From the NCBI RefSeq assembly GCF_018350175.1, contig NC_058382.1:8866001-8930000 (forward strand): a DNA stretch of 64,000 nt. The letters run 5' to 3'. How positions within the stretch are numbered: the stretch's first letter is position 1; every line of letters begins with the position of its first letter. Of this stretch, positions 5,231 to 54,400 are shown piece after piece. The DNA is from Felis catus. Taxonomy: Eukaryota. Made by a program: the position numbers and the translations under genes. The notes under the pieces are model-generated. The model worked only from the letters and a program-made list of their open reading frames with translations. It was not told where the DNA came from and made no database searches.

Positions 5231-5795
5231 GAGTGGGACCGGAGGATGCCTGGGACCCAGGAATCGGGGCCTTCGGTCCCAGGAGGCGCAGCCCCAACCG
5301 CTAGCCCCGTAGGACCCCAGGAGTCTCCACCCCCCCCCCCCAACTCCTGCTCGTCCAGAGGCCGAGATCCCTCATCCAGTCCCCGACCTCCAGCCTCTCA
5401 TGTTCCACCTGGCCCCTCTCTTCCCGTCACCCCCATGGCGGAGTCCTCACCCTCCCTCCACCAGGCCCACCCCAGAGAGGAGTGGGTGGCACATCGCCCA
5501 ACTAAAGTGGGACCTCCCGGCCCGGGGAGCCAGATTCCAAGGTGCGGATGTGGCAGGCTGGCTCCGAGACCCGTTGCTATCTTGGAAACACCAGTTTTCG
5601 ACATTCGCCGTCCCCATCCCTGCAGTTCCAAGCGCCCACCTCCCTCCCCTCCCTCAGATCCAGGCCCCTGATCCCCTTTCCCGGGGACCCAGGAGTCTCA
5701 AGCCTTGGTTTCCTCGTTCCCCCAGGCCCCTGCCCACGGACACTTCCTCCTGGGGCTCCGGGGCCCCGCTAATTCACCTTTCCTCCCGTGCAGCC

Positions 5796-6875
5796 ATGTG
5801 GGCCCCCAGCCAACGGCAGCTCTGTGTGGCTTTCCTGCTAGTGTGTGTCCTTTCAGCCACCTTGTTCCTCTACGTCCACCGAGACCTCTTTCCCAACGGC
5901 CTGGCCCTGACGGCCCTGTGTCCAGGCCGCCGCCCGGTGCCATCCCCTGTGGCCATCCTCTGCCTGTCCCCCAACACCTCCGCCTGCCCCAAGCCCCCCG
6001 CCTCCCTCTCGGGAACCTGGACCATCCACCCAGACGGCCGGTTCGGTAACCAGATGGGGCAGTACGCCACGCTCCTGGCCCTGGCCCAGCTCAACAGTCG
6101 CCGGGCCTTCATCCTGCCCGCCATGCACGCCGCCCTGGCCCCCGTGTTCCGCATCACCCTGCCGGTGCTGGCGCCCGAGGTGGACAGCCGCACGCCCTGG
6201 CGGGAGCTGGAGCTCCACGACTGGATGTCCCGGGAGTACGCCCGCCTGAGGGACCCCTTGCTGAAGCTCACCGGCTTTCCCTGCTCCTGGACCTTCTTCC
6301 ACCACCTCCGGGAGCAGATCCGCAGGGAATTCACGCTGCATGACCACCTTCGGCGAGAGGCCCAGGGTCTGCTGAGCCGGCTCCGCCTGGGCCCCACCGG
6401 GGACCGCCCTCGCACCTTCGTGGGCGTCCACGTGCGCCGCGGGGACTACCTGCGGGTCATGCCCCACCGCTGGAAGGGGGTGGTAGGCGATCGCGCTTAC
6501 CTCCGGCAGGCTATGGACTGGTTCCGGGCACGGCACGAAGACCCCGTCTTTGTGGTCACCAGCAACGGCATGGAGTGGTGCCGGGAAAACATGGACACGT
6601 CCCGTGGGGATGTGATCTTTGCGGGCGACGGGCAGGAGGGCTCGCCGGGGAGGGACTTCGCGCTGCTCACGCAGTGCAACCACACCATCATGACCATTGG
6701 CACTTTTGGCTTCTGGGCCGCCTACCTGACCGGTGGGGACACCGTCTACCTGGCCAACTTCACCCTGCCCGACTCCAACTTCCTGAAGATCTTTAAGCCC
6801 GAGGCTGCCTTCTTGCCCGAGTGGGTGGGCATTAATGCAGACTTGTCTCCCCTCCGCTCCTTGGCTGGGCCTTGA
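5796..6875 (+). CDS. FUT1: Galactoside alpha-(1,2)-fucosyltransferase 1 (H enzyme), single coding exon, 359 aa
   Basis: [10 protein letters not shown] start directly after acceptor CAG (5791-5793); N-terminal TM; GT11 motifs [11 protein letters not shown] and HVRRGDY; synteny between FGF21 and IZUMO1. Confidence 0.96.
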
Positions 6876-10247: not shown

Positions 10248-13561
<3,314 letters not shown>

Positions 13562-14705: not shown

Positions 14706-18179
<3,474 letters not shown>

Positions 18180-19361
18180 AGATTTATCTGGTTGTCTAAA
18201 TATCGGATTCCTTTTCTCCGGTCAGATTCTCAGTTTTGGCTTCCCGAGAGGAGAGCTCTGGGGCGGGTCTCCTGTCCTAGAAGGATAGACTGGGAACCCG
18301 GGTCCCTTCGGCGTGGCAGGGCCACCTGGCTGAGATGCACTTCCAGAATCAAGGAGTGATTCCCGAATCAAGGGCCAGCCCTACCCAGATCTCCTCCCCC
18401 AGGCCCAACCCCTCACATGACAACCCGTCCACACTCTTCCAGTGGGTTTCCCCTGCCTTTTCCTCTCCCCCAGCCAGTGCTGGGAGCCGGGGCAGAGGCG
18501 AAGGCTGAATAGGAACAGTGGGGTCTGAACTAACCAGGCCGACGGAGCCAGGGCGCCGGGTGCTGTTGGGGCCTCAAGCAGGGACCCAGGGGTCCGCACG
18601 CCTCCTCCATCAGACCCAAGACCAAGTCCCCAGCCATCTTCCACGCCAGTTCCCAGGAGCTAAGCTCCCATCTTTCTCCTCCACCGAGACCCCACCCCCT
18701 CCACCCCAACGCGACCACACGGGGGCCTCGTCTGGGAGGAACCAGAAAAAAGTTCTAGTAGAGAGGGGGCGGAGGGCGTTATCCTGGAACTATAGGCGGA
18801 GCCTCCCTTTGTTGCCGTCCAATCAGACTCAGAGTTGGGTTTGTGGGCGGGGCCGAGGGCACTCCTGGATTGTCTCTAGGTAAGTCGGGGGGCCTGTGTG
18901 GAAAGCTAGAAGGGAAACGCTGTGGGATTTCCTTGCACATTGAGGCGATCTTCAGGTCTGACTCCAGTCATAAAGCTCTCTGCATCACGTGAGCCACCTC
19001 GCCTTCGCTGCAACAGCATCCTTAATTTCAGTCGTGGCGTAACAGAGCCGGAAGGACGTGGCCGGCTGGTCCCCCTGAATGCCCTCAGCCTGGATTCCGC
19101 TCTTCAGCAAACCCTAGTTGTATTCGAGGGTCAACGGACAAGTTCAAGGTCGGGCAGCGGCTGCTCAGGGTGCATCGCGACTCCGGACTCCTCGGTTTCC
19201 TAACCGAGAAGTGGGAGACCTACAACTTGGGGGTCTTAGTCTCCGGGAAGGGGTTCTTTCCCCTTAGCGATCACGTCCTCCTCCGTGTGGGGTGGGCGGA
19301 CCGTCCCCATAAAGTCCAGAGAGTCCTGGTGGGTTCTGCTGGGGCTGAGCGCCCTGGGGAA

Positions 19362-22647
<3,286 letters not shown>

Positions 22648-25208
22648 GGCTAGGTCCCAAAGAGTCAGCCTTCACAGGAGCAGGTTCCGAAGGTACCGAA
22701 GGAAAAGGCCACAGTACCGTGGCACAAATAAAGATTTATCTGGTTGTCTAAATACCGGACTCACTTCCTCTGCTCTGATCCTCACTCTTGGTTTCCGAGA
22801 GGAGAACTCTGGGGCTGGTCTCCTGTCCTAGAAGGAGAGCCTGGGAACATGCGTCCCTTCATCATGACAGGGCCACCGGGCTGAGATGTAATTCCGGAAT
22901 CAAGGAGTGGGGAAGGACCAGCCCTACCCAGATCTCCTCCCTCAGGCCCGTCCTCTCCCAGGATGCCCCCTCCCAGCTCTTCCTGCCAGGTTTGCTCTTG
23001 TCTTTTCTGGATCCCCAGCCAGTACTGGGAGCCTGGGCAGAGGCAAAGGCTGAAGGGGAACAGCGGGGTCAGGAAGCAACCAGGGCCAACGGAGCCAGGG
23101 CCCCGGGGTGCTGTTGGGACCTGAAGCAGGGTAAGAACCAGGGACCCTGAAGTCCAGACCCCTCCTCCCTCAGACCTAGTGTTGAGGGAGCATAAGTGAG
23201 GCTAAGAGCAAAATAGAAGCTAGCACTCCCCACCCCCTGGTGGGATATAGGTGACGTTGCTCAGACACTCCTGAGGTACTTTGTCTTTTCTTCCTTTACT
23301 CTCATTTTAGGGGCTTTTCGCGAAGTATGGTCTTACTGGAACCCTTTTCATGTGGATTGCTCAGGCTGCAATCCTCTAGCCCATGTCTACTCTATGGGGA
23401 GGAGAAAGCCTGTCTTTTGGCTGGATGTTACTACCCTGGGTGGGGTGGTAATGAGACCCAGAAACTTGGTGCCCTCTCTTTATTCCTGTCCTCAGGCAAA
23501 GTTGTCTGTCTTGTGCATGGGACAGCCACCTGTCCAAGTAGCCAAGTGGACCAACACGGCTGCCAATCTTATGATTCCCGTGTGAGGTATCTTCCTCATT
23601 GGTCTAAGGTGATCCCCTCCACATTTCTGGTCTAGCTGCTTCTAGCCTCGGAACCTCCCACGGAGAGCTGGCGGAACCACTACTCGATTGAAAGAACATT
23701 GAACCGGGGACCGTTTCTTAGGGAAGTTGGCTGTGAAGACCTTACGTGTTGGAATATCACTTAGATCATGGTGGATTTCTGCCTTTACTGTTTTCAATCA
23801 GTGTCCTCTATTAACTGCTACTTAAATTACCAAATTGGGTCATTCCCCCTTGCAAAATTTCCAGTGTTTTCCACGGGCTCTAAATGACAGTTGACTGTCC
23901 TTCTCAGCCAGGCAAATTTGGTCCATACGTCAGACACCCATCTGTAGTCTGGGGGAAGCGAAGGGATGCTAACATCCCTCTTTTAGGAGCCCTTAATCGG
24001 CTAGTCGGTGGTCATAGAGATTTCGTTTGAGGGTTGTGTCGGGTCGCTTTGGCACCGGGAACCTCTGACGTTTCCTGTGCCTGGGACACCACCGGGGAGC
24101 CGGGGGGTGGGGCGGTTGTCAGGATAATAGAGGCTTTCTCTCTAGGAGAAGCATGGGAGCTCCTCCTCTGTCTCCAAGGAGTCTCCCCTGGGATGTCTTT
24201 TAACCCACTGGAAACAATTTGGATTGCAAAATTTAGGAAAGGATTGATCTCCTGTAATACTGCATGGCGTCCGTAGGATCTAGCAGTTAGATCTCTTCTG
24301 CAGTAAACAGGGCAAATGGACAGAGGTACCCTAGGTCCAGGCCTTCACAGCTCTAAATCACGACCCAGACCCAAAGGCTTCTTGCAGAATGTGTTTGCCA
24401 AAGTGTATTTGGCTGGTAAACTCCCTCCTGACATATTGGATGTCTAGATAGGCCTCCCCTAAGTGAATCCAGGCTGTTGGAGGAAACACAGGCCATTTCC
24501 AACCAAGGGGACGCTGACTCTTTCTCTCTGTTCCTCCTCCTAACTGGTGTGAGGGCTTCTCCCTCATGCATTTCCTGGGTTAACGGCTACAATTGGAGGT
24601 AATTGTGATTAGTCTCCCTCGGGTCTGGGACTTTACGGAATATTCCCAAGCAGCTGCCGAAACTCCATTCATTTTAGGGAAATTCCCTATCTTCTCCAGC
24701 CTGACACGGACCGCCTAATTCTTCTTTGGTGGAAAAAACATGCCATCTGCTCATCTGTTCAAGTTGACAGGCTTTAGTACCAGGAGACCCCCCTCTCTCC
24801 GCTCTCTGGGCCTTTATCTACCTTTAGGCTTCTTGGCCAAACCTCACCCCTTCAGTCTTATCCCCCTCCTGCTGTTTCTGCACCACCTTGGGTGAGACCT
24901 ACACAACTGTCTTCTATACCACCCTCAGTGCCTCAGGCACCATTGGCTCCTCCCTCAAGGTCAAGGAGCGAAGAGCACCCCCTTGGACCACCCACTTCCG
25001 GTTTCCCCACCAGTGTCCCAAGTTTAAAAAATTGACAACGGGGAACATATTATCTTGTAAGTGGATACCGGTGGAACTTATTTGGAGTTTAAACTAATTT
25101 AAGTTTGTTGATTTAATTTAATTAAGATATACATGTCTTTAGGGTTATCAGCATTAAATATGAAACGTATTCTATCTAGGTTTATTAAAGGTCAAATAAG
25201 CTCATGTT

Positions 25209-25745
25209 GGGGGCGTCTGAATGCCTCACTCAGTTGAGTGTCCAACTTTGGCTCACGTCATGATCTCACGGTTCATGGGTTCGAGCCCCATGTGGGGCTC
25301 TGTGCTGACAGCTTGGGGCCTGGAGCCTGTGTGTCCCTCTCTCTCTGCTCCTCCCCTGTTCATGCTCTGTCTCTCTTTCTCTCTCTCAAAATAAATGAAC
25401 ATTTAAAAAAAGTACACTGGTATAAGGTCGAAATTCTGCTTTTCTCTCTGTTCAAAGTCAAAGTTTTCTTGGATTGCTGGTCTGCCCTTGATAAGAAAAT
25501 GCAAACAGGGGCGCCTGGGTGGCTCAGTCGGTTAAGCGGCCGACTTCGGCTCGGGTCATGATCTCGCGGTCTGTGAGTTCGAGCCCCGCGTTGGGCTCTG
25601 TGCTGACAGCTCAGAACCTGGAGTCTGTTTCAGATTCTGTGTCTCCCTCTCTCTCTGCCCCTCCCCCGTTCATGCTCTGTCTCTCTCTGTCTCAAAAATA
25701 AATAAATGTTAAAAAAAAAATTAAAAAAAGAAGAAAAGAAAAGAA
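25209..25745 (+). mobile_element. Two carnivore SINEs inside the ERV (~25209-25410, ~25508-25745)
   Basis: SINE heads, (CT)n and polyA tails. Confidence 0.85.
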
Positions 25746-28700
25746 AACGCAAACAAAGAGTTTTTTTCTCTTTGGGAAAAAAACCAAGGCTTTAGGGTTC
25801 CTCTTTCATCAAGTCTTTAATTACTTAGTTAAAACTTCTCAGTGTTAAAGGAGCTAAGTTTTGCTAACAACTGTATAACCTTACATGTTTGCCTTTGGGA
25901 TCTCTTGTTGCCATCCTGGTTAAATAATGTAAAGTTTGATGATTTGTAATGATCTGTAATCCTATTTAGGATGTGCTTTGTAGCTTACTGAGGTTTTAGC
26001 AAACTTTCCCGCATTTAAATCATAAATGAAGTCTTTTTTTTTTTTTTTTTTTTTAACCAATTAGGCATTTTCTGGCATATTAAGTTACTCTGGAACCACT
26101 TTCCAACAAATAATGGTATTGCACGGGTAAATGCTAGAACCGTTCAAATATATATATATATATATGTGATTCCTAAACTTTTAATATCTTGGTATAAGGT
26201 CTTCCTTTGGTACTCTATCAAAGTATTATGTGTCTTTGAACACTGGATGACCTTGCTAACTGCATCATAATGAACTCTCATATCATATGGTGAACATGTC
26301 CATTTCTGACATTTTGTCATTTATAGTTGTGGTTCTGATACTCATCTTCAAGGAGATTAATCAAAAGGATTTTTAGGACAAAGAGAGATATTTGACATCT
26401 CCAAGATGAGTACTTAAATGGGTGAGAAGCTGCCTTCAAACTGGACAAGAATTAGGAACAGTGGACTAAATGAAGTGAGGAAGAGGTTCGAGTTTTGTGA
26501 CTCTCGTTGGAAATATTGCCGGTCCTTTAATGTTTGCTCTTCCAGATGAAGGGAACTTTCTCTTAAGGTACCTATGACAAAGGGAAATGTGATAGAGTAT
26601 TCATTTGTGTACACACTGAAGCATTTAACTTTTCTCTCTACCTAAACCCTCTACAATTCAAAGACTCTCAGTGAATATCTGTTCACAACAATTAGAATCA
26701 TTTGCATAAGTTCAGTAAGAATCTGTTCTGCTTGCAACAGGATGCCATTGGAAATACGGTTATTTTAGCAAGGCTTTGACCGGAATGTCCTGCTTGAGAG
26801 ACATGAGTAGACTCAGACATGACCATACAGCTCTAAGAAACTAAGGTTGACTTTATGAAACAGGGAGCCATAAAGCCCTTTGGAAATGTCGGCCTGAAAC
26901 CTTGCTCACAGAGTTCCCAGCAGCCTTACCAGTTGCGTAAAACATGTCACTTCCTGGCAGGTGTAGGAACCTCAGGATAGCTTGGGGACCTCGTGAAGAG
27001 GAATTCGCCCAATTCCACAGGTATTGCAGCCATGTCTGATGGCAAGTGCTTGGCTTGGCTTCTGGCCTGTAGAGGCTACTAAAAGTTCAATCTAGAGATT
27101 CCCTATAAAAGGTTCCAGCAAAGCAAACTTTAAAAGATCCTTATACTCGATCGCTCTTCTTGCTCAGCTTATCTGAATAAGTAGGCCAAGTTTATCAAAC
27201 TAGATGTGTTTTACAAGCGAATTAGGCTGGATTTGGCCATCTCTGGAAATGAGGGTTACTAGGGAGAAAAATTAGGTTTCAACAATAGACCTTAATGGAT
27301 ACTAAATTCTAGCTGATTTTCTTTAAATGTTTGCCTAAGCTGGACAACTTGAGGCACTTCAGAGATATTGTCACAATAGCACAGGTATGGACAATCTTTT
27401 TGCTTCTTATTCTGTGGGGATAATAATATGACTCAATGGGCATAGGATTATTTGAACAACGGGAAAATGGGAAGGACTCCCCTAGCAATCATACATAAAA
27501 AAGACTTTTCTCGCTGTAAACCTATCAGTAGATAAAGGCTATAGAGCTTTATGAAATTATTCACCTGAATCTAACGTATCCTTCCTAAACCTGACCCGGT
27601 GATTACTAGAAACTCACACCATATAAACCCAGGAGGCCTTGTTTATTTAGAGGATTAAAAGTCTAATACAGCAGGGGATTTAACTCCAAAATAAAAGTGC
27701 CCCCAACGAGTCCTATTATATACTCCCACTGCAGTACAGTTAGAGGGAAACTCTTCATGAGCCCCTGTATCTAAATAAAACCCGTACCCCCTTTACAGGA
27801 AGTCAATGAACAAACTAATGTGCCTTCATCTTCCTGTGAACCTGTGCAAGACCTCGAACCTGCCTTATGATGGTTGAGCCTTTCCTTTCTCATTCTCCTT
27901 TCCCCAATTTATACTAACGATTCCTTTGTACAATGGGCATAGCATTAGTGCTGAACCCCAAAGTCAGACAGCTTGCTGGATACGTAGAGTTTTGCCCATG
28001 TCAAGCACATCTGGGTTACCATGGTGGGTCTCCCCTTTACAAGGTATTGGTTGGCACTCTGTATGTACTTGGATTTCAAAAATAGCATAGAAAGATACGA
28101 TGTTTCAAAAGAAGTCTATCACTAATCAAAATGTTCCTTTCTGGTCCAGGAGCGATGTCTTGGAATTTACCAGGACATAACTGGACTTTTTCATATCCTC
28201 AGCCTGTGAAGGTAGTAGCTGATTTTACAAACCCACAAGGTAATACCCACCAACGAGGGCTTAAGTTACAAATCCCCACTTATCAGCATACTGTGGATGG
28301 CATATGTCAAATTTGGGATGCATATTTATGGCTCACACTCACCATGGGATCGCTCAGTCACAAAGGACAATTTTATGCAGGGAACAAAGAAATGATACAT
28401 ATGATACGTAGTACTTACCTATGGCCCTGGCTTTCTCCAAGATGGATAGATAGATCACTGCACCTTAGAATTTGCCTGGATTCATGGGCGCATTATTAAA
28501 ACCATCGCTGCCCCAGCTGACCTTCCAGATTTAAAACAAAAGTGGGCAGGACCTGTTTCCGCTGTCATGATCACTTGGCATCCATTTTTGTCCCATGTGT
28601 AGGGTTAAAAAGTGTCATTTGGCATGTGAAAGCCCTCGATAACTAGACCGTAGGGGCATTCAATAACTCACCAAACAGCATCTGGTTACTCAACACTGAG

Positions 28701-28886
28701 GTCGCGTAGACGCGCAACACAGCTCTGTAAAATAGAAGAGCATTAGATGTTTTCGCTGCTGTACAAGGTGGAAGTTGTGCTCTCATAAAAACAATGCTGT
28801 GTATTGTTCCAGATGACCACAAATGTAGTTCTGGGTTTCTACCTAACATGAGTACTCAAATGGGTGCTTTAAACAATCCCTTTCAT

Positions 28887-29117
28887 GGGGCACCTGGGTG
28901 GCTCAGTCGACTGAGCATTCGACTTCGGCTTGGGTCATGATCTCATGGTTTGTGGGTTTGAGCCCCACATCGGGCTCTGTGCTGACAGCTCAGAGCCTGG
29001 AGCCTGCTTCGGATTCTAGGTCTCCCTCTCTCGGTGCCCCTCCCCCACTCACACTCTCTTTCTCTCTCTCTCTCTCTTGCTCTAAAAAATAATTAAAACA
29101 AACAAACAAACAAAAAA
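28887..29117 (+). mobile_element. Carnivore SINE inserted in the env remnant
   Basis: ggggcacctgggtggctcagtc head, (CT)n, A-rich tail. Confidence 0.85.
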
Positions 29118-29699
29118 CCCCAATGACTCCCTTTCCTTCAGCGATTGGTTAAATTCTTGCACTAGACCATTTTTGGCAACTACCAAAGGACTTTTATTGG
29201 AGTTTCTTTCTTGTTATTCAAATTGTCCTGCTGTATCTCATCCTGGTCCCAAGACTCCATCACTGCATTAACTTCAAGCCAACAGACAACCCTTTCTACA
29301 CGAGGAGGTTCCTGTATGTTGCCCACGTCGGATTCAGCTGCCTCCATTTTGGTAACTACGCTCATAGGCCCTCAACTGATCCATATTGACCCATAGTGTA
29401 ATGGCACCAAGGTCCGCACAGAGAGTCGTGACACCTAGGCGTTTCTTTCCAGGAAGCAACTTGATTCATCTTGCCAGCACGGCCTCAATGGGTTGGTACC
29501 CCCAACAAACTGACCCGTGAGTGCAGCGGGGTATGGCCTTTTATAACAATTTCTAATTCTTTGCTTTCCATACATGGTAACATACGGACGTACAGCCTGA
29601 TTGGGCGGTCTATGTTATGGAGCCCTGAGGAAATTCAGGACTATGTGCCCATAGCCCGGTTGCCCTTCCTTGTCTCCTCCTTCAGGCTCTACCCTCCTA

Positions 29700-33106
<3,407 letters not shown>

Positions 33107-34281
33107 GCCACAGTCCCAAGGCGCAAATAAAGATTTATCTGGTTGTCTCTACATCAGGTTCATTTCCTCAGGTCTGATCCTCGGTTTTGGTTTCCCCAGA
33201 GGAGAGGTGTGGGCTGGTCTCGTGTCCTAGAAAGAGAGATCGGGAACCCTGTCCCTTCGTCGTGGCAGGGCCTCACTGGCTGAGAGGTCGTTCCAGAATT
33301 AAGAAGTGGGGAAGGGCCAGTCCTACCTAATTGTCCCTCCCCACCCCCACCCAGGTCCGGTCCTCTCCAAGGAACCCTGTCCCCACACTTAGCATGGGTT
33401 TCCTCTTGCCTTTTCCTGTCCTGCAGCCAGTGCTGGGAGCTGGGGCAAAGCCTGACAGGAACAGTGGGGTCAGGAAGCCACCAGGGCCAAGGGAGCCAGG
33501 GTTCCGGGGTGCTGTTGGGACCTGAGGCAGGGGAAGACCCAGGCATCCGGGGGTCCACACCCAAGAGCCCGTCTCCAGCAGTCTTCCATCCCAGCACCCA
33601 TGAGCTAAGCTCCCATCCTTCTCCTCCACCCAGACTTGCGAGTTCACCCCAGCCCCCAGCACGGCAACCCCACCACTGAGGGCCTAGTCTGGGGGGACCA
33701 GATGAACTTTCTAGTCTGAGACGGGGCTGTCTGCTTTGTCCTGGAACCATAGGCAGAGCCTCCCTTTGTTGCCGTCCAATCAGACTCAGAGTTGGGTTTG
33801 TGGGCGGGGCCAAGAAAACTCCCGGGGAGCGTCGTCTCTAGGGAAGTCCGGCGGGGGGGCGGGCCAGGTAGTAACGTAGAAGGGGGAGGGTGTGGGAATT
33901 CCTTGTAGTTCGGGGTGAAAGGTGACCCTGGCTCCGGTCATAAAGCCCTCCACATCACGTGACCAACGTCACCCTCTCCCCAACAACATCCTTATTTTCA
34001 GTCTTGGGAAATCGAGTGGAAGACGGTGGCCTGCTCGTCCCTTCCAAAAGCCCTCAGCCTGGTTTCGACCTTGACAACATTCAAGGTCAAGGTCGGGCAG
34101 CGGCTGTCTAGGGTGCCTTGGGACTCCGGACACCTCGGGTTCCTAACGGAGAAGTGGGAGCCCTGCAAATTGGGGCTCTTCGTCTCAGGGATAGCTTCTT
34201 TCCCCTTAGCGATCACCTCCTCCGAGTGGGCTGGGAGGACCCTCCCCGGGAATCTGTGCGGGGCTGAGCCCTCCGGCCTCA

Positions 34282-37861
<3,580 letters not shown>

Positions 37862-39135
37862 CGTCAGCTGTCACAGAGCCACGTTCTCAAAGTACCGAAG
37901 GACAAGGACACAGGACCAAGTCACAAATAAAGATTTATCTGGTTGCTGAAATATCAGATTCGTTTCCTCGGGTCTGATCCTCAGTTTTGGTTTCCCGAGA
38001 GGAGAGCTCTGGGGCCGGCCTCCTGTCCGAGAAGGAGAGACCCGGTGGCGGGGTCCCTTCGTGGTGGCAGGGCCACCTGGCTGAGATGTAATTCCAGCAT
38101 CGAGGAGTGGGGCAGAGCCAGCCCTACCCAGATCTCCTCCCCCAGGCCCATCTCTTGACAGGACGGCCCCTCCTCACTCTTCCAGCCGGCTTTCCTCTGG
38201 CGTTTTCCTGTCCCCCAGCCAGTGCTGCGAGCCGGGGCAGAGGCAAAGCCTGAACGTGAACAGCGGGTCTAGGAACCAACCAGGGAGAACGGAAACAGGA
38301 CGCCGGGGTGCCGTTGGGACTTGAAGCAGGGTAAGAATCGGGGACCCGGGGATCCTCACGCCTCCTACTTCAGACCCAAGAGCCAGTCCCCAGGCATCTC
38401 CCATAACAGCACCCAGGAGTTAGGCTCCCATCCTTCTCCTCCACCCACACTCATTAGTCTGAGCCACCCCTCTACCCCAACCCGACCACTCAAGGGCCTC
38501 ATCTGGAAGGAATACATGAAAAGGTCTAGGGTGAGAGGGGGCGGTCTGCATCATCCTGGAACCACAGGCGGAGCCTCCTTTTGTTGACGTCCAATCAGAC
38601 TCAGAGTTGGATTTCTGGGCGGGGCCAATGGAGCTTCCTGGGAGTGTCTCTAGGGAAGTCGGGGGCCCAGTGTAGGCAGGTGGAAGGCGGCGGCTGTGGG
38701 ATTCCATTGTACATTGAGGCGATCCTCGAGCCTGACTCCAGTCATAAAGTTCTCCACGTCACGTGACCAACCTCACCCTCGCTCCAACAACATCCTTAAT
38801 ATGATTCATGGCAAAATAGACTGGAGGGAGGTGGCCGGCTCGTCCCTCTAAATGCCCTCAGCCTGGATTCCGCTATTCAGTGAACCCTACGTGTATTCGA
38901 GGGTACACCCTTCAAGCTCAAGGTCGGAGAGCGGCTGTTCAGGGTGCATCGGGACTCCGGACTCCTCGGTTTCCTAACCGAGAAGTGGGAGACCTACAAA
39001 TTGGGGGTCTTAGTCTCCGGGAAGGGGTTCTTTCCCCTTAGCGATCACGTCCTCCTCCGTGTGGGGTGGGCGGACCCTCCCCATAAAGTCCAGAGAGTCC
39101 TGGTGGGTTCTGCTGGGGCTGAGCGCCCTGGGGAA

Positions 39136-42100
39136 ATGGGTCCCCAAGTTGCCCTCCTGGTGGCGGCGCTAGCCGGCTGCCTGCTTCCTGCCCGGAGCTG
39201 TATCGCCTGTGATGAGAGGGTTGGGAAGCAGTTGGACGCCTTGGAAAAAGAATACCTGCGAACCCACCTTGCCCCCGGGCGGCACAGGGAAGTGATGGAA
39301 AAGATAAGAGAGACCGTCGACAATTTCAAGGACCTGCCAGATATACAGTCTACTTTAAATGGGGCTGTCGGTGAGGGCACGGCAGAGCGTGGGAACCCTG
39401 GGTCCTGGGAAAGGAGGGGGTCTAGTGTCAGAATTGCTAGGGGCAGGGGGCGACGGGAGGGAAAGGCTGAAGGCAGAGTCTACTGGGTTCGGGCGTGGAG
39501 AAGGCTGGGATGCAGAATCCAGGCCTCGCCAGGGCTAGGAATACACTTCCCCTATAGGCCTTACCTTGCCATTTTGGATAAAAACTACAACTCCCAGCAG
39601 GCAACGGGCGGGCAATCGCTTTACAGCCCCATCCTTGCCCAGGAGCCACATGGGTATTGTAGTTTGTAACGCTAGCTGAGCCAAGAGAGCTTAAGGCTTG
39701 GAATCTGAGGTTCTGTCTCCCCTCCCCGCATCCCCTGTTCCCCTCCAGATGAGGCCACAATGAAAATGGCAGCGTCGAGTTTTCTGAGGAGTGTGAAACT
39801 TATCACAAACCGTGGTTTAAGAGGTAAATGCACACAGATGGGGGGGGGCGGGGGGAGAAGCTCCAGAATCTTTGGCTCTGGAGTCAACCTGCCTAGCTTC
39901 AAATACCTGCCCAGTCATCCCCTAGCTGCGTGGCCTTGGAGGAGGTTTTCCACGTCTAAAATGGATCATAACGGTGCCTGGACACCGGCCCTCGCTTAGC
40001 TCAGTGGCCGGCGTGGTTAAGTGGCCATTCAATTTCATTGTGGCTCCCTGAGAAGTCCCCAACGGGAATTGGCATGCCCTTCAGACAGAGACAAACTTCC
40101 TGTACCTCACTCCTGGGGTGGGGAGCGGAGGGGTCGCACTCCCTGTCACCCTGCTTCTTCCCAGATGACACTTTCGTGAAGGAGTTCTCCGCGATGTTGA
40201 CTCGGGAAAAGGAAACGTTTCGGCACAATGTCGCTCGGTTTCACGGAGGTGAGGGAAGATGGGCTCCGTCAGGGACCACAGCCCCTTCCTCCACCAGTCC
40301 CAGGGTCTCTGTCCCCAGCCCCCTGCTTCTCTACGTCCAGCGCCTCACCTCTCCCGACCGCGCCCTCCCTTGGACCCAGAGCTCCAGGCACCCGGGTCCT
40401 TCCTCCCTCCAACCCAAGCACCCAACCCCCACCTATTCCTTGGCCCCCCTCTCTGGTGTCCTCTACCTTTGAAACCTTATAATAATTTCATTCTTTTCTC
40501 CAGGTGAGGATTCTTGTCCCAACAAATGTGGTGAGTCCGGATCATGGATACTGGTTTTCTACCCTTCATCCTTGCCCCGTGAATACCCAGCCTTTCTCCT
40601 CCGGCTTTGGGTCTCGGTGGTTCTTCCTTCCCCACGTCTGAGAGGTTCCTGGTCCCCAGTAGTCCTTCTGCACAGCGGGCTTCCTGGATAGCGGGTCCCC
40701 TTCTCTGGGCGCTCTTTCCTGAGATTGGTTACACCCCTCTTCAGGGAGGACTGCCTTCTAGCCCCGCCCCTTGGGCTGACCCCTAGGGATTAGGGGCCTG
40801 ACTCCGCCCCCGACCTTGGCCCTGCCCTCTCCGTGGAGCCCCTTTTCTTGGGGCGAATTACAGCCTCGTTCATGCCCCTTCAGGTGTATTGTTGCGGCTT
40901 CTGAGGTGGTGCGATTCTTGCCTGCTGCACACGTACCCTTGTCGAAAGTCCACAGATTGTGGAGGTGAGAGGGCTGGCGCCAGCGGGAGGGGTTGGCGCA
41001 GGAGGGGCGGAGCCAGGAGAGAGGGAGTCTTGACAGGGCGGAGACTGAACCAGGCCTGTTAGCAAAGAAGGGCTTAGACCCGGTTGGAGGGAGTTGATGG
41101 AGGGCCTGGAAGCACGAGGAAGCACCCCACCATTACCCTCGTCCCCAGTGCGCCAAATCAACGTCAATGAAAAGGAAGACCTGGTCCTGGACTGTGAGCT
41201 CGACTGGCACAAAATTGCTACAGGCGCGACCCGTTACAGCTTTTACAGGGTGGGCCCTTCAAGCCCAAGTCCATTAGGGTTGTGAGCCCCCGACGCCTGT
41301 AGCCACAGGCTTGTTCCCACAATCCCTGTGACCCATGACCTACCCGGTTTGCCTTCTACGGATCCCCGGCGACCCCACGCCCTTACGGGTATACCCTGGA
41401 CCCCCATCTCTCTCCTGAGATCTCGTGATGTTCTCGCCCCTGTACTTCCCCAAACCCTGAATTCCCCAGGCCTGTGTGACCCCTTGAGTTTTGGGTCTAG
41501 GTTTGGGGGAGCAAAGCTGACAGCTTGTTGTACACGGGGAAATGGCCCACCCTGACCAAGCAACTGGTGAGGCCCGCGGATGCAGGTACCTACCGCTGCG
41601 CGTTGGGCACTCCGGGAGTGAGCCTATTCTCGGCCCTCCGTTTTGAAGTCACAGGTCAGTGCTGTTGACAGAAGTGGGGGATTCAGTTTCCTTAAAACGA
41701 AGTGGGGGATTCAGTTGGATTAAAACTGCCTGTCAGAGTGTGGTTTCAGGCCACGGGGGTGTGGCTTCCTGGCCTGGGGGTGGCCCCCAGCCACCTTGAC
41801 CTGCTTTCTGTAGTTAGGGTTGGGAGTATCTCCTGGAAGGCCTGGGTGTTGGGGACGGTTGACGTGGCGAGAGCTTGCCTGGGTGAGGACGGGCCCTTGG
41901 GACCCTCTCAGGTCCGTTCATTTCCTCTTCTTTATCAGTGTTGCCTCGGAAAATCATTTCGGTGATGGTGACATCTCCCAAGTCTGCAGCCATTGTAACC
42001 CAGCCATCAACCATTGGAACCCAGTCACCAACCAATGGAACGCAGTCACCAGCCATTGGAACCGAGGCTGAGGAGGAAATCTGGGATGACCTTTCCCCAA

Positions 42101-42621
42101 CCCTCGTGCCCTCAGAGTGTTCAAAGCCCGAAAATGTGCAGACCGGCCGTCTGATAGGGCTGCTTCTCTGGTGCTTTTTCCTGCTGATCATAGGATTTTT
42201 CACTGGGTGAGCCAACCACGGAAGAAGGCAGGGCTTGGGGTGGGGGGCGGGGTCCCCACCTTCCTAATGTGGGAGGGGTCTTGTGGGGTTTAGAAAACTG
42301 GGAGGGGCTCACCTACATGGGCGAAGCTTGGGTCATTGCTAGAAAGGATCCAATACAGGGAGGGTGGGAGGGGTGTCCCTCAGTCAGGACCGAATCTGTT
42401 ACCCCATTTTGCACCCTACCGTCCCCAGCGTACTTTGCTTTCGGTCTGGGATGGTGACCGATTCCATAAAGTCCAGATTCCGCACCGACAAGGCAGCTGC
42501 TCCACAGGACCAGCTTCCACAGAGTTGGCTGTCACAGAACCAGCTGTCACATGACCAGCTGTCACAGAGTCCGCTCTCAGAAACCCAGGTTCCGAAAGCT
42601 GAGAAACTTCCGAAGGAATAG
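39136..42621 (+). CDS. IZUMO1: IZUMO1 copy 6, open frame, 405 aa, most divergent; exons 39136-39370, 39749-39823, 40165-40248, 40504-40530, 40884-40964, 41149-41249, 41501-41654, 41939-42206, 42429-42621
   Basis: Frame is intact if the 27-nt microexon (ctccag|GTGAGGATTCTTGTCCCAACAAATGTG|gt) is used; ten Cys kept; W113A; hinge LRWCDSCLLHTYPCRK. Confidence 0.83.
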
Positions 42622-43778: not shown

Positions 43779-47287
<3,509 letters not shown>

Positions 47288-47399: not shown

Positions 47400-47686
47400 A
47401 AGTCAGTTCCCTGTGTCAAGGCAGTGCCCAACTAGCTGAGATGTAATTCCAGAATCAAGGAGTAGAGAAGGGCCTGCCCTACGCAGATCTCCTCCCCCAG
47501 GCCCGGTCCCCTCACAGGACGCCCCCTCCCAGCTCTTCCTGCCGGGTTTCCTCTCGCCTTTTCCTGTCCCCCACCCAGTGCTGGGAGCCGGGGCAGAGGC
47601 AAAGGCTGAACGGGAACAGCGGGGTCAGGAACCAACCAGGGCCAACGGAGCCAGGGCCCCGGGGTGCTGTTGGGACCTGAAGCAGG
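47400..47686 (+). promoter_or_regulatory. Probable RASIP1 promoter and non-coding exon 1 (donor AGG|GTAAGA at 47686/47687)
   Basis: Lies between the IZUMO1 polyA signal (47283-47288) and the acceptor (47890-47891) of the ATG-containing RASIP1 exon; strong donor. Confidence 0.65.
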
Positions 47687-47895
47687 GTAAGAACCGCGGA
47701 GCCAGGAGTCCAGACCCCTCCTCCCTCAGACCCAGTGGCCAGTCCCCACCCATCTCCCATCCCAGCACCCAGGAGCTTAGCTCCCATCCGTCTCCTCCAC
47801 CCAGACTCGCGAGTTTGAGCCCCAGGCCCCTCCATCCCCAACCCCACTACTCGGGGCCTCAGGAGTTGGGGTCTTACCCATCCTTCCTTAGGGCC

Positions 47896-48366
47896 ATGCT
47901 ATCTGGTGAACGGAAAGAGGGCGGAAGCCCCCGCTTCGGGAAGCTCCACCTCCCCGTGGGCTTGTGGATCAATTCTCCCAGGAAACAGCTGGCCAAGCTG
48001 GGACGCCGCTGGCCTAGCGCCGCCTCTGTTAAGTGAGTGCCCACCTCCTCCAGGCCCCTGTCCCTCCTCCACCTACCTCCCAATTGTCCTCGTTTCTGAT
48101 CCAGTCTCTGCACCGGGTAGGGCCAGGGGCCCCGAGCGTTGACTGCAGTTCCTTTCCGGAATGGGCAAGTGAGGTGGCGGGCTGGAGGAGACAGACAGTG
48201 GGCCACAGTGCTCTCAGAGTCCGGTCGGGGAAGAGCCGGGCCTGGATAGGGGCCCTCGCTGGATGGACAAGGCGATGGGGATACAGGGGCAAGGGTTTGA
48301 TTCCCCTTCCTTCCTCCCCTCCCTGCTTACCTCTTGCAACTTCCTTAGGTGCCACTCGCCTTCATT

Positions 48367-48403
<37 letters not shown>

Positions 48404-51400
48404 CTGGCCTCTGCCCAACTCCGTATCTGTACACTCGCGTCTCTCCCCCTTCTGTGGGTCTCTGTCTCCCTCTTTATCTCTGTCTCTGTCCCTCTCTTTC
48501 CCTGGGTTTCTTTTGCTCTTTCGGTCTGGATCTGTGTCCCCTCTCAATGGGTCTCTCTGTCACTCTCCGGGTCTCTGATCCCTCCGTCTGGGTCTTTGCC
48601 CACCTCCTTCCTTCGTCTTCTGCCATCGGCCTCCATCCTGGCCTGTCTCTCTCGGTCTCTTTGCCGCCTCTCCGCTCCCCTGGCGGGTTCCCAGGTCTTC
48701 TTCCTCGGACACGGGGAGCCGCAGCAGCGAGCCGCTGCCCCCGCCGCCGCCGCACGTGGAGCTGCGGCGAGTGGGCGCGGTCAAGGCGGCCGGGGGAGCC
48801 TCCGGGAGTCGCGCCAAGCGCATCTCCCAGCTCTTTCGGGGCTCGGGGACCGGGGCCACGGGGTCCGGCGGCGCGGGAGGCGCCGGGACTCCGGGGGGCG
48901 CTCAGCGCTGGGCCAGCGAGAAGAAGCTGCCTGAGCTGGCCGCGGGCGTGGCCCCCGAGCCCCCGCTGGCCGCCCGCGCCACGGCACCCCCGGGGGTCCT
49001 CAAGATCTTCGGCGCCGGGCTGGCGTCGGGCGCCAACTACAAGAGCGTGCTCGCCACTGCGCGCTCCACGGCACGCGAGCTGGTGGCCGAGGCGCTGGAG
49101 CGCTACGGGCTGGCGGGGAGCCCCGGCGGCAGCCCAGGCGAGAGCAGCTGCGTGGACGCCTTCGCGCTGTGCGACGCGCTGGGCCGGCCCGCGGCGGGCG
49201 GCGTGGGCAGCTGCGAGTGGCGGGCGGAGCACCTGCGCGTGCTGGGCGACTCGGAGCGACCGCTGCTGGTGCAGGAGCTGTGGCGAGCGCGGCCCGGCTG
49301 GGCGCGCCGTTTCGAGCTGCGCGGCCGCGAGGAGGCGCGCCGCCTGGAGCAGGAGGCCTTCGGGGCGGCGGACAGCGACGGTGAGCCGGCGGGGGCCCGA
49401 CTCCGGGGGCGGGGCGGGGCCTGTCCTGGAGGCGGGGCCAGCGGTGGCTGGGCGGGGCTTGGGGCCGGGGGCTAAGGGGGCCGGGATCTGTGGGGCTGGA
49501 GAGACCAGGGGTAGGCTGGAGGCGGGGCCCCCGGGAGAAAGGGAGGGGGGAATGGGAGGAGCCTAAAGCCCCGGGTCAGGTCGGGGGCGGGGCTGGGGCC
49601 AGACCGGAGTTATTGCCAGAGTGGATGGGCGGGGCTTGTGATGGGGGGTGGGGGGTCCCTGCTGAAGAGGGTAACCCAGAGCCAGAGGTGTTGAGTCGTG
49701 GTGGTCGTCCGCGTGGCTAGAAGGCCTCTCGGGAGAGGCAGGGCCGACGTAGATTAAGCCTCTTTGGGGGAGGAGCCTGGAGAGTGAAGAAATGGTGGGC
49801 TTGTTTGGGGCAGAAAATGATCCAAGCTTTAGGAGCGCCTGAGTGGCTCAGTGGGTTAAGCCTCCGACTTCGGATCGGATCATGATCGCTCGGTCCGTGA
49901 GCTCGAGCCCAGCGTCGGGCTCTGTCCTAACAGCTGGGAGCCTGGAGCCTGCTATAGATTCTGTGTCTCCTTCTCTCTGCCCTTCCCCTGCTCGTGCTCT
50001 CCCTCTCTTAAGAATAATTAAAAAAACAGATCGAAGCTTCAGAGGATCTGACCTTGGAGCAGGTGGATCTAGGCTGGGTTGGCTGCAGACTGTGGGTGGG
50101 AGATTTGAGGGTGGCGCATGGGAAATGAAGACGTAACACCATCAAGGGCTTACATGCTGGCCTGGCCTTTGAGGAAACGTTCCTGGAACAGGAGGTGGTC
50201 CCCTTGGTGAAATAGTAAGTGCAGAGCAGGGCCCGGCAGGGATGGAGCCGGCTCTAAGGGGCTGCTCACAGAACCTTCTAAAGCTTTTCTGTTTCTGAGC
50301 CTCCCATCGGGGAGACAGAGTGGGGTAGCGGTCAACCTCCTGAGCTCTGAACTCTGGCTTGGATTCCGATCCGTTCTTTGTCGGTTCCGCTCTGCAACAC
50401 CCTAGGGGAAGATGAAATAGGAAAATGTATAAAAGGGTTTTAGCACAGGGCTTGGCACATAGTGGTCGCCTAATAAAGAAAGGCAATTACAACCATCACT
50501 GTCTTCCCCCCCCCCAAAAAGCATTGGTTGAGCGCCTACTGTGGGCCACACATTATTTAGGGCCCTGGGGGAATACAGTGAGCACATGACAGATGAGGTT
50601 CCCCCCCTCTAGATTTCGTGGCCTAGTGAGAAACAAATCACTAGTTCGTTCCTTCCGTTCACCATCACCCACTATGTGCCGGGCACAGGGAACAGCATAT
50701 ACAGAAAACTAAATGTGCGAAGCAGCCTCACCTCTCTGTGGTCAATTTTTTTGTCTCTTTATCATCTCGGCTCTGCGAGCCTGTCTCGGGCTCTTTGGAG
50801 TCTCTTGCCTCATCCCTCTCGGTCTCTCCGCAGGCACGGGTGCCCCCTCGTGGCGGCCGCAGAAGAATCGCTCCCGGGCGGCGTCCGGAGGGGCGGCCCT
50901 GGCCAGTCCGGGCCCGGGGTCCGGGTCAGGGCCCCCCGCTGGGTCCGGGGGCAAAGAGCGCTCGGAAAACCTGTCCCTGCGGCGCAGCGTGTCGGAGCTC
51001 AGCCTGCAGGGTCGCCGGCGGCGGCAGCAGGAGCGCAGGCAGCAGGCACTTAGCATGGCCCCAGGGGCAGCCGACACCCAAATCGGACCTGCTGACCCTG
51101 GCGACTTCGATCAGTTGACCCAGTGCCTCATTCAGGCTCCCAGCAACCGTCCCTACTTCCTGCTGCTCCAGGGCTACCAGGACGCTCAGGTAAGGCAGCC
51201 CCTCCTACCCCGGAGAGAACTATGCTCCGGCCTTCTGTCCACCTTCCTTCGTCTGCAGGGCGACAAAATTACAACTCCCAGAATCCCCTGGGTCGCGGTA
51301 GTCTCAGGTTTGCGGGAAGGCGTGGGCCCAGCAAGGTAGGGTTCCAGGGTAGGAGAGGTCATTGTGGGAGACAGGGGATGGGGGGAAGAGGTGATAGTCG

Positions 51401-54400
51401 TGGAGGTTGGTGGCTGAAAAAGATTTTGCTGGAAGAACAAGTGGGGAATGGTTCATTTCATGCAATGTTGGGGGAACACACTGCCTTTGTCTGTCAAGGG
51501 GGAATGTGAGAGCCTATCGTAGAAAAGGGATCTCCTTGTAAGCGCCTATTTCTTGATGAGGAGTAATTGAAGTGTCTATCTTGTTTGGGAGGAAGATAAG
51601 TTCATTGATGTATGGGATCTTGTTCTGGGTAAGCGTATATTTTCTTGGAAGGAGCAGACTAACCCGCTTTTTAAAGGTGATGGTTTACACTGGAATGATT
51701 TGACTCTTGTTAGGGGGCGTAGGGGGTACGATGCTTCTGTTTTCTATATTTGGGTGACAGTAGAACTTTGCTTGAGTGTTAGGCAGCAGAGAGGGAGAAA
51801 GGATTAGCAGATAGTAGAAAATGATTCGTGGGAAATTGTTTCATTAATAGAAACGTAACGTACTCTTGGAAAGACTCATTTGTGTGTGTGTGTGTGTGTG
51901 CGTGTGCGCGCGATGATTGGGGGAGCCATGTTTGTGGTGTCGCCCAACTTTGAGTAACAGCAGTACAGCCAAGTTCCACAGGTACTGCTGGGAATCAATG
52001 GGAAAGCCCACTCTAGAAGGTAGTGGAGCTCAGCAAATAGTCCCATTTGTGCTGTCAGAGTGATCCAGTTGGGTTCGGTGGCCTGTGTGTGGGTGTGTAT
52101 GAGTGAGAGGTTAAGACTATTGAGAGAAGGGCTTGCGTGGAAGAATTCATTCCTCCTTACTGGGGCAAGTTCCTTACAGGGAGGGGTTTGCAGACAAGGT
52201 TGGAGAATAGGAGAGCCTGTTTTGGGAAGACGGGGGACATTGGGAGCATCCATTCTTTTGAATGGGGTTCATGAGAAATTCCTTTCTAAGAAAGAGGCTT
52301 CTATGGAAGTATTCCTTCCTGGGGAAGAGGAATCAGAGGTGAATCTCGTAGGGAGGAATTTATTTGCACTCATCTATTCATGAGTGGCTATAACCCGGGA
52401 GTTCATTGGGGGCACTGTGGAATCCCTTCTGGGGTTAAGTAATTTTAGAAGAGGGTTCCATGTATTTTGGACCATTCCATTGCTTCAAACAGGGATGGAT
52501 AACAGGAGATTTTACCTTTGGAAGGTGGTCATACTGGAAAGGTCCATTTTCTAGAGGCAGATGAACAAGTCCATTGTAGGAAGGGGTCTCTTTGGAAATG
52601 TCCATCCATGAGGTAAAGGTAATACGTGAGTTCAGGGAGGATGACTATCCTCCCAGTGTGAATAGAGAACAGAGAGTCCATTTTAGGAAGAGGGCCAGAC
52701 TGAGCTCTTCCATTTTTGTAGGATGGAGATGGGAGAGTCATTTAGGAAGGGGTCTTCTGGAATGCACCTCTTCATTTGGTGGATGAAATGGGACACTCCA
52801 TTATAAGAAGAGGGTCTCCTTGAAAACATCTATTAATAAGGTGGGGTTACTAGAAGAGCCACTATATGGAGAGCTCCATGGAGATGTTCTTTGTTGGGAT
52901 GAGAATACTAAAAGCATCCATTGATGGAAAGGAGTATCTTTGGAATCCTCTATCATGGGAGTGGGGGTAGTAGGTGAGTCCATTGTAGTATTATTTCTCC
53001 TTGGAAGTGAGTTCAGCATGGGGTGGGGGGAAATAAGGGTCCTTTGTAGAAAGGGGGTCTCCCTGGAAGTGTATGTTCATGGGGTGGAGATAATGGAAGA
53101 AACCTTTGTTCAAAGGGGGCAGTCTCCTTAAAGATATCCGTCCCGTGTCTTGGAAATATTCAGAGAAGCTCTTATTAGAAGGGGAAATGTCTTTGGAAGT
53201 CCCCATTATGGTGGTGGAAGGACTGGCAAATGGGGCCAGCGTCAGAGAAATGGGAGGGTTCACAGGAGAAAGATGTCCTTGGAAAGTTCCATTCTTTGGG
53301 GGGCAAGGTAATGGGCAGTCCACTGTAGTCATGGGGGTGTGGTGCTCTTGGAAGCACCCCTTCTTTGGGCTCTATATCATGGGAGAGTGCATTGTGGGAA
53401 TGGATTTCCTTGAAAGGGTCCATTCAGAAGAGGTGAGAAGAGGGCGGCGTCTCCTGGAGAAATGTCTCCTGGAAAACATCAATAATTTCAGGGAGGGCAA
53501 TTACAGAACTCATGTCAAGAAAGGGGTTTCCTGGGCACCTGGGTGGCGCAGTCGGTTAAGCGTCCGACTTCAGCCAGGTCACGATCTCGCGGTCCGTGAG
53601 TTCGAGCCCCGCGTCGGGCTCTGGGCTGATGGCTCGAAGCCTGGAGCCTGTTTCCGATTCTGTGTCTCCCTCTCTCTCTGCCCCTCCCCCATTCATGCTC
53701 TGTCTCTCTCTGTCCCAAAAATAAATAAACGTTGAAAAAAAATTAAAAAAAAAAAAAAAAAAAGAAAGGGGTTTCCTTATACGCAGCCAGTCTTCCAGAT
53801 GGGTGTTCTGGACCAGTCCATCACAGGAAGTGCCGTTGAAGAGTCCACTCATGGTTTGGGGAAGCAATTGCTGAGGCTTTGGGGATCCCAGGAGATCTCC
53901 TTGAAAGCGTTCATTCTAAGCGAGGTGGTGGATGGGAGAGTCCTTTGTGGCCAAGGGTCCCCTTTGGAAACATCCGTTCCTCACGGAGCTGTGTCTCTCC
54001 TGTATCTTCACCTTCCCTGCAGGACTTCGTGGTGTATGTGATGACGCGGGAGCAGCATGTCTTCGGCCGGGGCGGGAACTCCTCGGCCCGTGGTGGGTCC
54101 CCGGCCCCGTATGTGGACACCTTTCTCAATGCCCCCGACATCCTGCCGCGGCACTGTACGGTGCGTGCGGGCCCTGAGCCCCCGGCCATGGTGCGCCCGG
54201 CCCGGGGTGCCCCGGTCACGCACAACGGGTGCCTCCTGCTGCGCGAGGCCGAGCTGCACCCTGGCGACCTGCTGGGGCTGGGCGAGCACTTCCTCTTCAT
54301 GTACAAGGACCCCCGCGCTGGGGGCTCGGGGCCCGCGCGGCCGCCGTGGCTGCCCACCCGTCCGGGGGCCTCCCCGCCAGGCCCCGGCTGGGCCTTCTCC

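Follow-up and report, generated by a model that had tools for sequence, protein, structure and literature searches.

The window (the whole 64-kb stretch of DNA that was analyzed) contains seven tandem copies of IZUMO1, five of which are intact (copies 1, 2, 3, 5, and 6), and its comparison with itself places a ~4.5-kb repeat unit throughout the interval between 9.6 and 47.9 kb. Exactly seven copies were also recovered by a DNA search of the 2.43-Gb assembly, and a profile search of this assembly gave 14 matches to PF16706 (Izumo-Ig), two per copy, with none outside the window. All genes and tracts of the window given here with coordinates are on the plus strand, with one exception marked below. 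The upstream flank holds a glycosyltransferase family 11 ORF (5313..6875; PF01531, E = 2e-126), which is presumably FUT1 by synteny, and the downstream flank holds a DIL-domain gene (47440..58925, extent approximate; PF01843 at 58443-58922, ORF at 47440-48036), presumably RASIP1, judging from synteny and its N terminus; the gene order would be FUT1-IZUMO1-RASIP1. The intact copies have open frames of 353 to 405 aa with GT-AG introns, in copies 3 and 6 exon 1 matches the IZUMO domain (PF15005), and PDB searches with copy 3 exon 1 and copy 6 exon 5 gave IZUMO1 chains only. The FUT1-RASIP1 position and a transmembrane segment followed by a tail are further IZUMO1 features of the array, and promoters with a TCACGTGA box were found in six of the seven copies. 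By domain, cysteine, and synteny features, the array units are IZUMO1.

Copy 1 (10248..13561; 353 aa and nine coding exons, from the ORF and GT-AG sites) is likely the canonical IZUMO1 gene, as it carries all eight residue states (L70, E71, A73, S150, Q155, L156, S162, and T163) described for Felidae or feliforms in the accessible portion of a Carnivora preprint (bioRxiv 10.1101/2022.03.22.485370). The second residue cluster (S150-T163) was compared under an inferred 7-residue offset, based on the 353 aa found here versus 346 aa in the jaguar and on the 7 residues coded by exon 4. The residue match also points to a felid as the likely source of the genome. As read from the alignment, copies 2, 3, 5, and 6 match 5, 4, 4, and 2 of these states. 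Copy 2 (14706..18179) is intact, codes for 374 aa, and keeps W148, K154, H157, and R160. Copy 3 (19362..22647), intact with 355 aa and H157Y, is a mosaic, with exons that go mostly with copies 1, 2, and 5 and several noncoding tracts that go with copies 4 and 6; it also has two N-glycosylation sequons (63 and 195) not found in copy 1. Copy 5 (34282..37861; intact, 368 aa) has K154Q, H157Y, and a longer Ser/Thr-rich stalk. The most diverged copy is copy 6 (39136..42621; intact, 405 aa), with K154L, H157Y, P158, the longest stalk, and a shifted exon 3/4 junction.

The initial annotation had counted seven coding sequences, which stands for the five intact copies but not for copies 4 and 7, both of which are broken. 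Copy 4 (29700..33106) is 5' truncated, with no promoter or start, and carries W148C; two indels shift its frame (1 nt inserted in exon 1 and 7 nt deleted from exon 5), exon 7 holds a stop, and the copy is near-identical to copy 6 in exons 2 to 5 and from the middle of exon 8 onward. It adjoins a 6.5-kb non-IZUMO insert with SINEs (23182..29699, no strand assigned), identified as a gap in the self-BLAST. The right end of this insert is an old interspersed repeat, which occupies the place of the copy 4 promoter and start codon; the repeat has 677 candidates genome-wide, and 39 other scored ones are 73 to 81% identical. Copy 7 (43779..47287) has a premature TAG at 44923 (codon 113) and is a chimera, copy 5-like from its 5' end to exon 2 and copy 2-like from exon 3.

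The fold is kept in the intact copies. The initial annotation had noted fixed cysteines in copies 3 and 6, and none of the ten cysteines varies among the five intact copies, including those at IZUMO-domain positions 22, 25, 135, 139, 149, 152, 159, and 165, and the Ig-like domain after the hinge is present in each copy, where both PF16706 matches fall. In the five intact copies, 111 of 228 residues are invariant, and exons 1 to 7 contain no frameshifts versus ~22 expected from the indel-to-substitution ratio of the introns (a rough, alignment-dependent figure). Frame and fold are clearly under purifying selection. The JUNO-contact residues are less uniform. W148, K154, H157, I158, R160, and L163 are positions at which mutation lowers oocyte binding, according to the part of the source available (PMC8406655); among the five intact copies, W148 and R160 are kept in all, K154 in three, and H157 in two, and residue 163 is T or R throughout. 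Exon 5, the site of the JUNO-contact residues, is the most diverged of exons 1 to 7 (mean, 24.6%). In comparison with mammalian IZUMO1, the array thus has the same IZUMO domain, Izumo-Ig, best PDB matches, ten cysteines, W148, R160, and transmembrane segment with tail, while differing in having seven copies, changes at K154, H157, and 158 in copies 3, 5, and 6, and variable stalks and tails.

In the accessible parts of the literature, IZUMO1 is treated as one gene per species (PMC3432370, PMC4807442, PMC8830517, and bioRxiv 10.1101/2022.03.22.485370), and the discussion turns on the four Izumo paralogues of ancient origin and on how selection has acted on orthologues, rather than on recent IZUMO1 copies (PMC3432370, PMC4807442, PMC8830517). 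The available text of the Carnivora preprint makes no mention of IZUMO1 copies or a tandem array, and "paralog" there refers to ZP genes. Our search of openly accessible literature found no earlier description of the array; public gene annotation may list IZUMO1-like loci.

The initial annotation had drawn attention to copies 3 and 6, and the similarities and differences it reported in this pair were reproduced: 5 of 256 bases differ in the 5' region (19170-19425 versus 38944-39199), 17 of the 337 aligned bases are mismatched in intron 2, where another 8 alignment columns are gaps, and a single residue of the 21 in the signal peptide is changed, versus 27 of the 57 residues in the mature part of exon 1 and 19% and 30% of bases in exons 3 and 5. 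The noncoding parts picked there are the most similar ones of the pair. The exon-intron contrast built on them holds for those parts but not for the rest of the pair, as divergence is 12 to 18% in the upstream region and in introns 3, 4, and 6 and reaches 25 to 27% in introns 7 and 8. Nor is it a rule of the array, in which mature exons average 11 to 25% over pairs, with the exception of the 21-nt exon 4 (5%), and introns 13 to 25% (means over 21 pairs, or 15 where copy 4 is without the region). Introns are as divergent as exons over all 21 pairs, and we discarded an array-wide excess of exon divergence. The signal peptide alone has a low divergence in all pairs (1.6 to 7.9% in each of 15), and the 5' DNA that adjoins it averages 15%.

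Shared tracts were called with a two-state HMM and appear in 18 of the 21 pairs, with five of them in pair 3-6. The 5' region and signal peptide of copies 3 and 6 form a tract of 263 bp with 5 differences (19165..19427), which stops 3 bases past the signal-peptide boundary. In intron 1, a tract shared by copies 3, 4, and 6 (19785..19964), found by the HMM and in the segment trees, has two ACTACAA-N2-CCCA motifs, which are ZNF143-like. The same three copies share a block made up of the 3' half of exon 2 and the greater part of intron 2 (20003..20354, also from the HMM and segment trees), and because this tract includes coding sequence, exon 2 of copy 3 is chimeric. The HMM also called an intron-4 tract (20790..20901), similar in many pairs (1-3, 1-6, 1-7, 2-3, 2-4, 2-6, 3-6, and others), and a tract of copies 3 and 6 at the junction of intron 5 and exon 6 (21308..21431). 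Constraint, and not conversion, may account for the low divergence of introns 1b and 4. In the segment trees, copy 3 joins copies 4 and 6 over four stretches, namely, the 5' region, intron 1b, the block of exon 2b and intron 2, and intron 5. Its exon 1 lies weakly near theirs (support, 0.81), and its exons 3, 5, 6, and 7 lie apart. These mosaic trees and shared tracts support the gene conversion of noncoding flanks proposed at first, and the near-identical patches of copies 3 and 6 were likely written by recent gene conversion.

Noncoding DNA of pair 3-6 differs by 2.6% inside tracts (19/726) versus 19.1% outside (316/1658). The mature exons differ at 143 of 684 bases (21%), with no excess over this unconverted noncoding DNA (P = 0.30), so the tracts of the pair are young and the exons are no faster than usual. 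Exon 1 (50/171) and exon 5 (24/81) do stand above the unconverted background (P = 0.002 and 0.03, respectively), both chosen post hoc. Tracts overlap the mature exons of the pair over 111 bases versus 226 expected (P = 0.10), their avoidance of exons 1, 3, and 5 alone gives P = 0.11, and in other intact pairs (2-5, 2-3, and 1-5) they reach coding sequence.

In exons 1, 3, and 5 of copies 3 and 6, silent changes are as old as replacement changes. The pS and pN values of the pair are 0.37 and 0.27 in exon 1, 0.27 and 0.18 in exon 3, 0.39 and 0.28 in exon 5, and 0.12 and 0.12 in exon 6, and only in exon 7 (0.10 and 0.22) does dN exceed dS. Path averaging inflates pS in codons changed multiply, and a kappa of 2.5 narrows the gap in exons 1, 3, and 5 with its sign unchanged. 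At clean fourfold sites of these three exons 6 of 25 differ, and silent differences were found in 13 of the 63 codons with identical residues, both far over the 2.6% of the tracts. As pS equals or exceeds pN in exons 1, 3, and 5, with exon dS as high as dN, conversion explains the exon-intron contrast of this pair, and the contrast alone does not serve as the signature of diversifying substitution it had been taken for. This is the outcome that the initial annotation had itself named as refuting its reading. We also rejected the idea that copies 3 and 6 split recently and that their exons then accelerated, given that the silent sites are old and the segment trees disagree.

The codon models covered codons 22 to 251 of the five intact copies, with one tree per exon block; codons 132 and 133 were masked, the indel-rich exons 8 and 9 were omitted, and copies 4 and 7 were excluded, apart from a control with copy 4. 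Overall dN/dS is 0.91, despite a constrained class of sites. M2a is preferred to M1a with an LRT of 13.4 with per-exon trees and of 8.6 with multinucleotide changes, its fit placing 35% of sites at a dN/dS of 2.5, and an observed LRT of 12.8 is higher than any value from null simulations, of which 18 were plain and 17 micro-mosaic (maxima, 7.9 and 8.8). The LRT falls to 2.3 to 2.4 once whole-codon rates vary across sites, under a null with 83% of sites at a dN/dS of 1. A rate-variation model without dN/dS above 1 is ahead of M2a by 2.9 lnL, which none of 21 simulations under true M2a reach (best, -0.8). Codons thus differ in age, as patchy conversion predicts, so a standard site test would mislead. 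Such rate variation is itself compatible with selection, since linked silent sites also become older when selection acts against conversion. Clustering of silent variation near variable residues was not significant (P = 0.16). The 26 NEB sites listed by M2a were not relied on, as the model fails the rate-variation and simulation checks, and an internal-branch dN/dS of 5 was unstable and was not used.

By branch, copy 1 has a dN/dS of 0.47 versus 1.03 for the rest (P = 0.06). The Ig-domain branch of copy 6 reaches 5.1 (P = 0.004, or ~0.04 after ten tests), while the helical bundle and hinge of this copy give 0.62. CpG hypermutation was discarded as the source of the copy 6 Ig changes, none of the 25 being CpG transitions. 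The broken copy 4 gives a dN/dS of 3.0 in the same Ig test (P = 0.045), with 14 nonsynonymous and 3 synonymous changes versus 15 and 2 in copy 6; either copy 4 was under the same Ig-domain selection before it broke, or this region biases the test. The positive selection on the ectodomain proposed at the outset finds some backing in the overall dN/dS, in the plain M2a test, in the Ig domain of copy 6, and in the post hoc excess of exons 1 and 5, but the signal does not withstand site-rate variation, and a broken copy behaves alike.

What we observe, then, is an array with mosaic tracts, in which exons diverge at background level at silent and replacement sites alike and the fold is kept, and the average protein divergence is near neutral. 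The explanation we prefer, with slightly better than even confidence, is that conversion wrote the patches of copies 3 and 6, while their exons remain ~20% diverged as selection keeps the ectodomains distinct. The array would have been built by unequal crossing-over (copy 7 being a 5/2 chimera), and conversion would have homogenized the interchangeable stretches, namely, the promoter-proximal DNA, signal peptide, introns, and some of the Ig fold. Tracts that erased residues specific to one ectodomain would have been purged, leaving opsin-like divergence peaks over exons 1 and 5. Copy 1 would likely perform the canonical JUNO binding, with copies 3, 5, and 6 as putative variant adhesins that bind JUNO with a changed affinity or have a different partner. 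The full form of this proposal, in which cat-family sperm carry up to five IZUMO1 proteins against one JUNO, with exons shielded from conversion by selection and copies 3, 5, and 6, their hinge residues rebuilt and their stalks longer, tuning egg binding or binding a new partner, we regard as speculative and rather unlikely. A PF03024 search gave a single locus with JUNO as its best PDB match, apart from a cluster of three folate-receptor genes; three lone matches to other contigs were weaker. On the stronger matches, a JUNO expansion alongside that of IZUMO1 was discarded.

Much of the same evidence could be accommodated by relaxed constraint, with redundant or dosage copies whose surfaces drift near-neutrally, only frame and fold being kept, and tracts that fall by chance or at existing similarity. 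We consider this a possible but doubtful account. The dN/dS of 1.03 off copy 1, the rate-variation null that fits as well with most sites at a dN/dS of 1, the tract placement (P = 0.10), the two broken copies out of seven, and the Ig-domain excess of broken copy 4, which resembles that of copy 6, are all in its favor; however, five frames have stayed open through ~20% divergence with none of the expected frameshifts, which argues that the proteins are maintained, divergence in exons 1 and 5 is above the background, and the copy 6 Ig branch has a dN/dS of 5 with no CpG transitions among its 25 changes. Strong diversification as in toxin or immune-receptor families, in which positive selection would have rapidly separated the ectodomain exons of two closely related copies, 3 and 6, seems improbable, and the synonymous-site results largely refute it for the contrast between the two copies. 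Silent sites of exons 1, 3, and 5 are as old as the nonsynonymous ones (6/25 at fourfold sites), exons 3, 5, 6, and 7 of copy 3 do not group with copy 6, the M2a signal is gone with site-rate variation, the data are unlike M2a simulations, and dN/dS is 0.62 in the bundle and hinge of copy 6. The points that speak for it are the M2a-M1a test (also with multinucleotide hits), an observed LRT above every null simulation, the copy 6 Ig branch even after correction for ten tests, and exon 7 of pair 3-6. An artifact of assembly is very improbable. Identity is ~99% between the 3' halves of copies 2 and 7 and ~98% over the first kilobase of copies 5 and 7, as an artifact might produce, but most pairs differ by 15 to 25% and the flanking genes are normal. 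For copy 6 an artifact is unlikely also because at least 0.90 of its sampled words are present in 14 of the 24 runs listed, from seven studies, one of which may be the assembly source.

A close known system is the primate red/green opsins, for which a divergence peak under gene conversion was modeled by Teshima and Innan and for which exon 5 is a precedent for the purging of conversion at copy-specific residues, according to the accessible text of a review (PMC3924837). As far as that text describes them, the opsins resemble the array in their homogenized introns, distinct exons, and differing exon and intron trees. They differ from it in having two copies and pervasive conversion, whereas the array has seven copies, patchy conversion, and an exon avoidance that is not significant. 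For IZUMO1 orthologues, the available portions of earlier studies report positive selection in Laurasiatheria and Caniformia and its absence between species within Feliformia (PMC3432370; bioRxiv 10.1101/2022.03.22.485370). Similar to the orthologue selection described in those portions, the variable sites of the array spare the signal peptide and cluster near residues 70 to 73 and the hinge; unlike it, the variation separates paralogues of a single genome and not species.

IZUMO1 is an essential fertilization gene that has been studied as single copy. The main interest lies in the array itself, with five intact and strongly diverged copies against one receptor. It offers a naturally occurring set of IZUMO1 variants with which to ask what residues determine the affinity for JUNO and the specificity between species, with a bearing on felid hybridization, assisted breeding, and IZUMO1-based contraception in cats. 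If five proteins do face one JUNO, published felid IZUMO1 analyses would have seen one member of a hidden, diversifying family. The array is also an example in which a PAML-style site test is significant while conversion-driven rate variation fits the data better. Last, with an intron divergence near 20 to 25% and an assumed substitution rate, the array is probably older than the living cat species, and we can expect it in other felids.

Exon 8 measures 175 nt in copies 1, 2, and 7 of the tandem IZUMO1 array, whereas it reaches 235 to 268 nt in copies 3 to 6 (22116-22350, 32451-32691, 37279-37537, and 41939-42206, respectively), so the proteins predicted for these four carry longer Ser/Thr/Pro-rich stalks. 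The predicted cytoplasmic tails are short in copies 3 and 5, and those of copies 2 (17984-18179), 4 (32914-33106), and 6 (42429-42621) contain short Gln/Ser/Leu repeats. Copies 4 and 6 also have a displaced exon 4 acceptor, which gives an exon 4 of 27 nt (31019-31045 and 40504-40530, respectively) and an exon 3 of 84 nt, with a net gain of one residue and the frame intact.

Within intron 1, we identified the motif ACTACAA-N2-CCCA, which we take to be ZNF143-like, twice each in copies 1 (10702 and 10768), 3 (19810 and 19877), 4 (30111 and 30178), and 6 (39584 and 39651) and once in copy 2 (15234), with no exact match in intron 1 of copies 5 and 7. Regulatory constraint may act on these motifs inside one of the near-identical tracts, the one common to copies 3, 4, and 6. 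In intron 4, the stretch at 20790-20901 and its homologous places are highly similar in at least 10 copy pairs, and this region could be either a conversion hotspot or a conserved element.

Copies 3 and 4 are separated by a 6.5-kb insert (23182-29699), which is AT-richer and contains SINEs and an old interspersed repeat, possibly retroviral. Both the end of the copy 3 flank and the copy 4 promoter are absent here, which points to an insertion accompanied by a deletion. Elsewhere in the window, a run of 140 N bases occupies 56400-56539.
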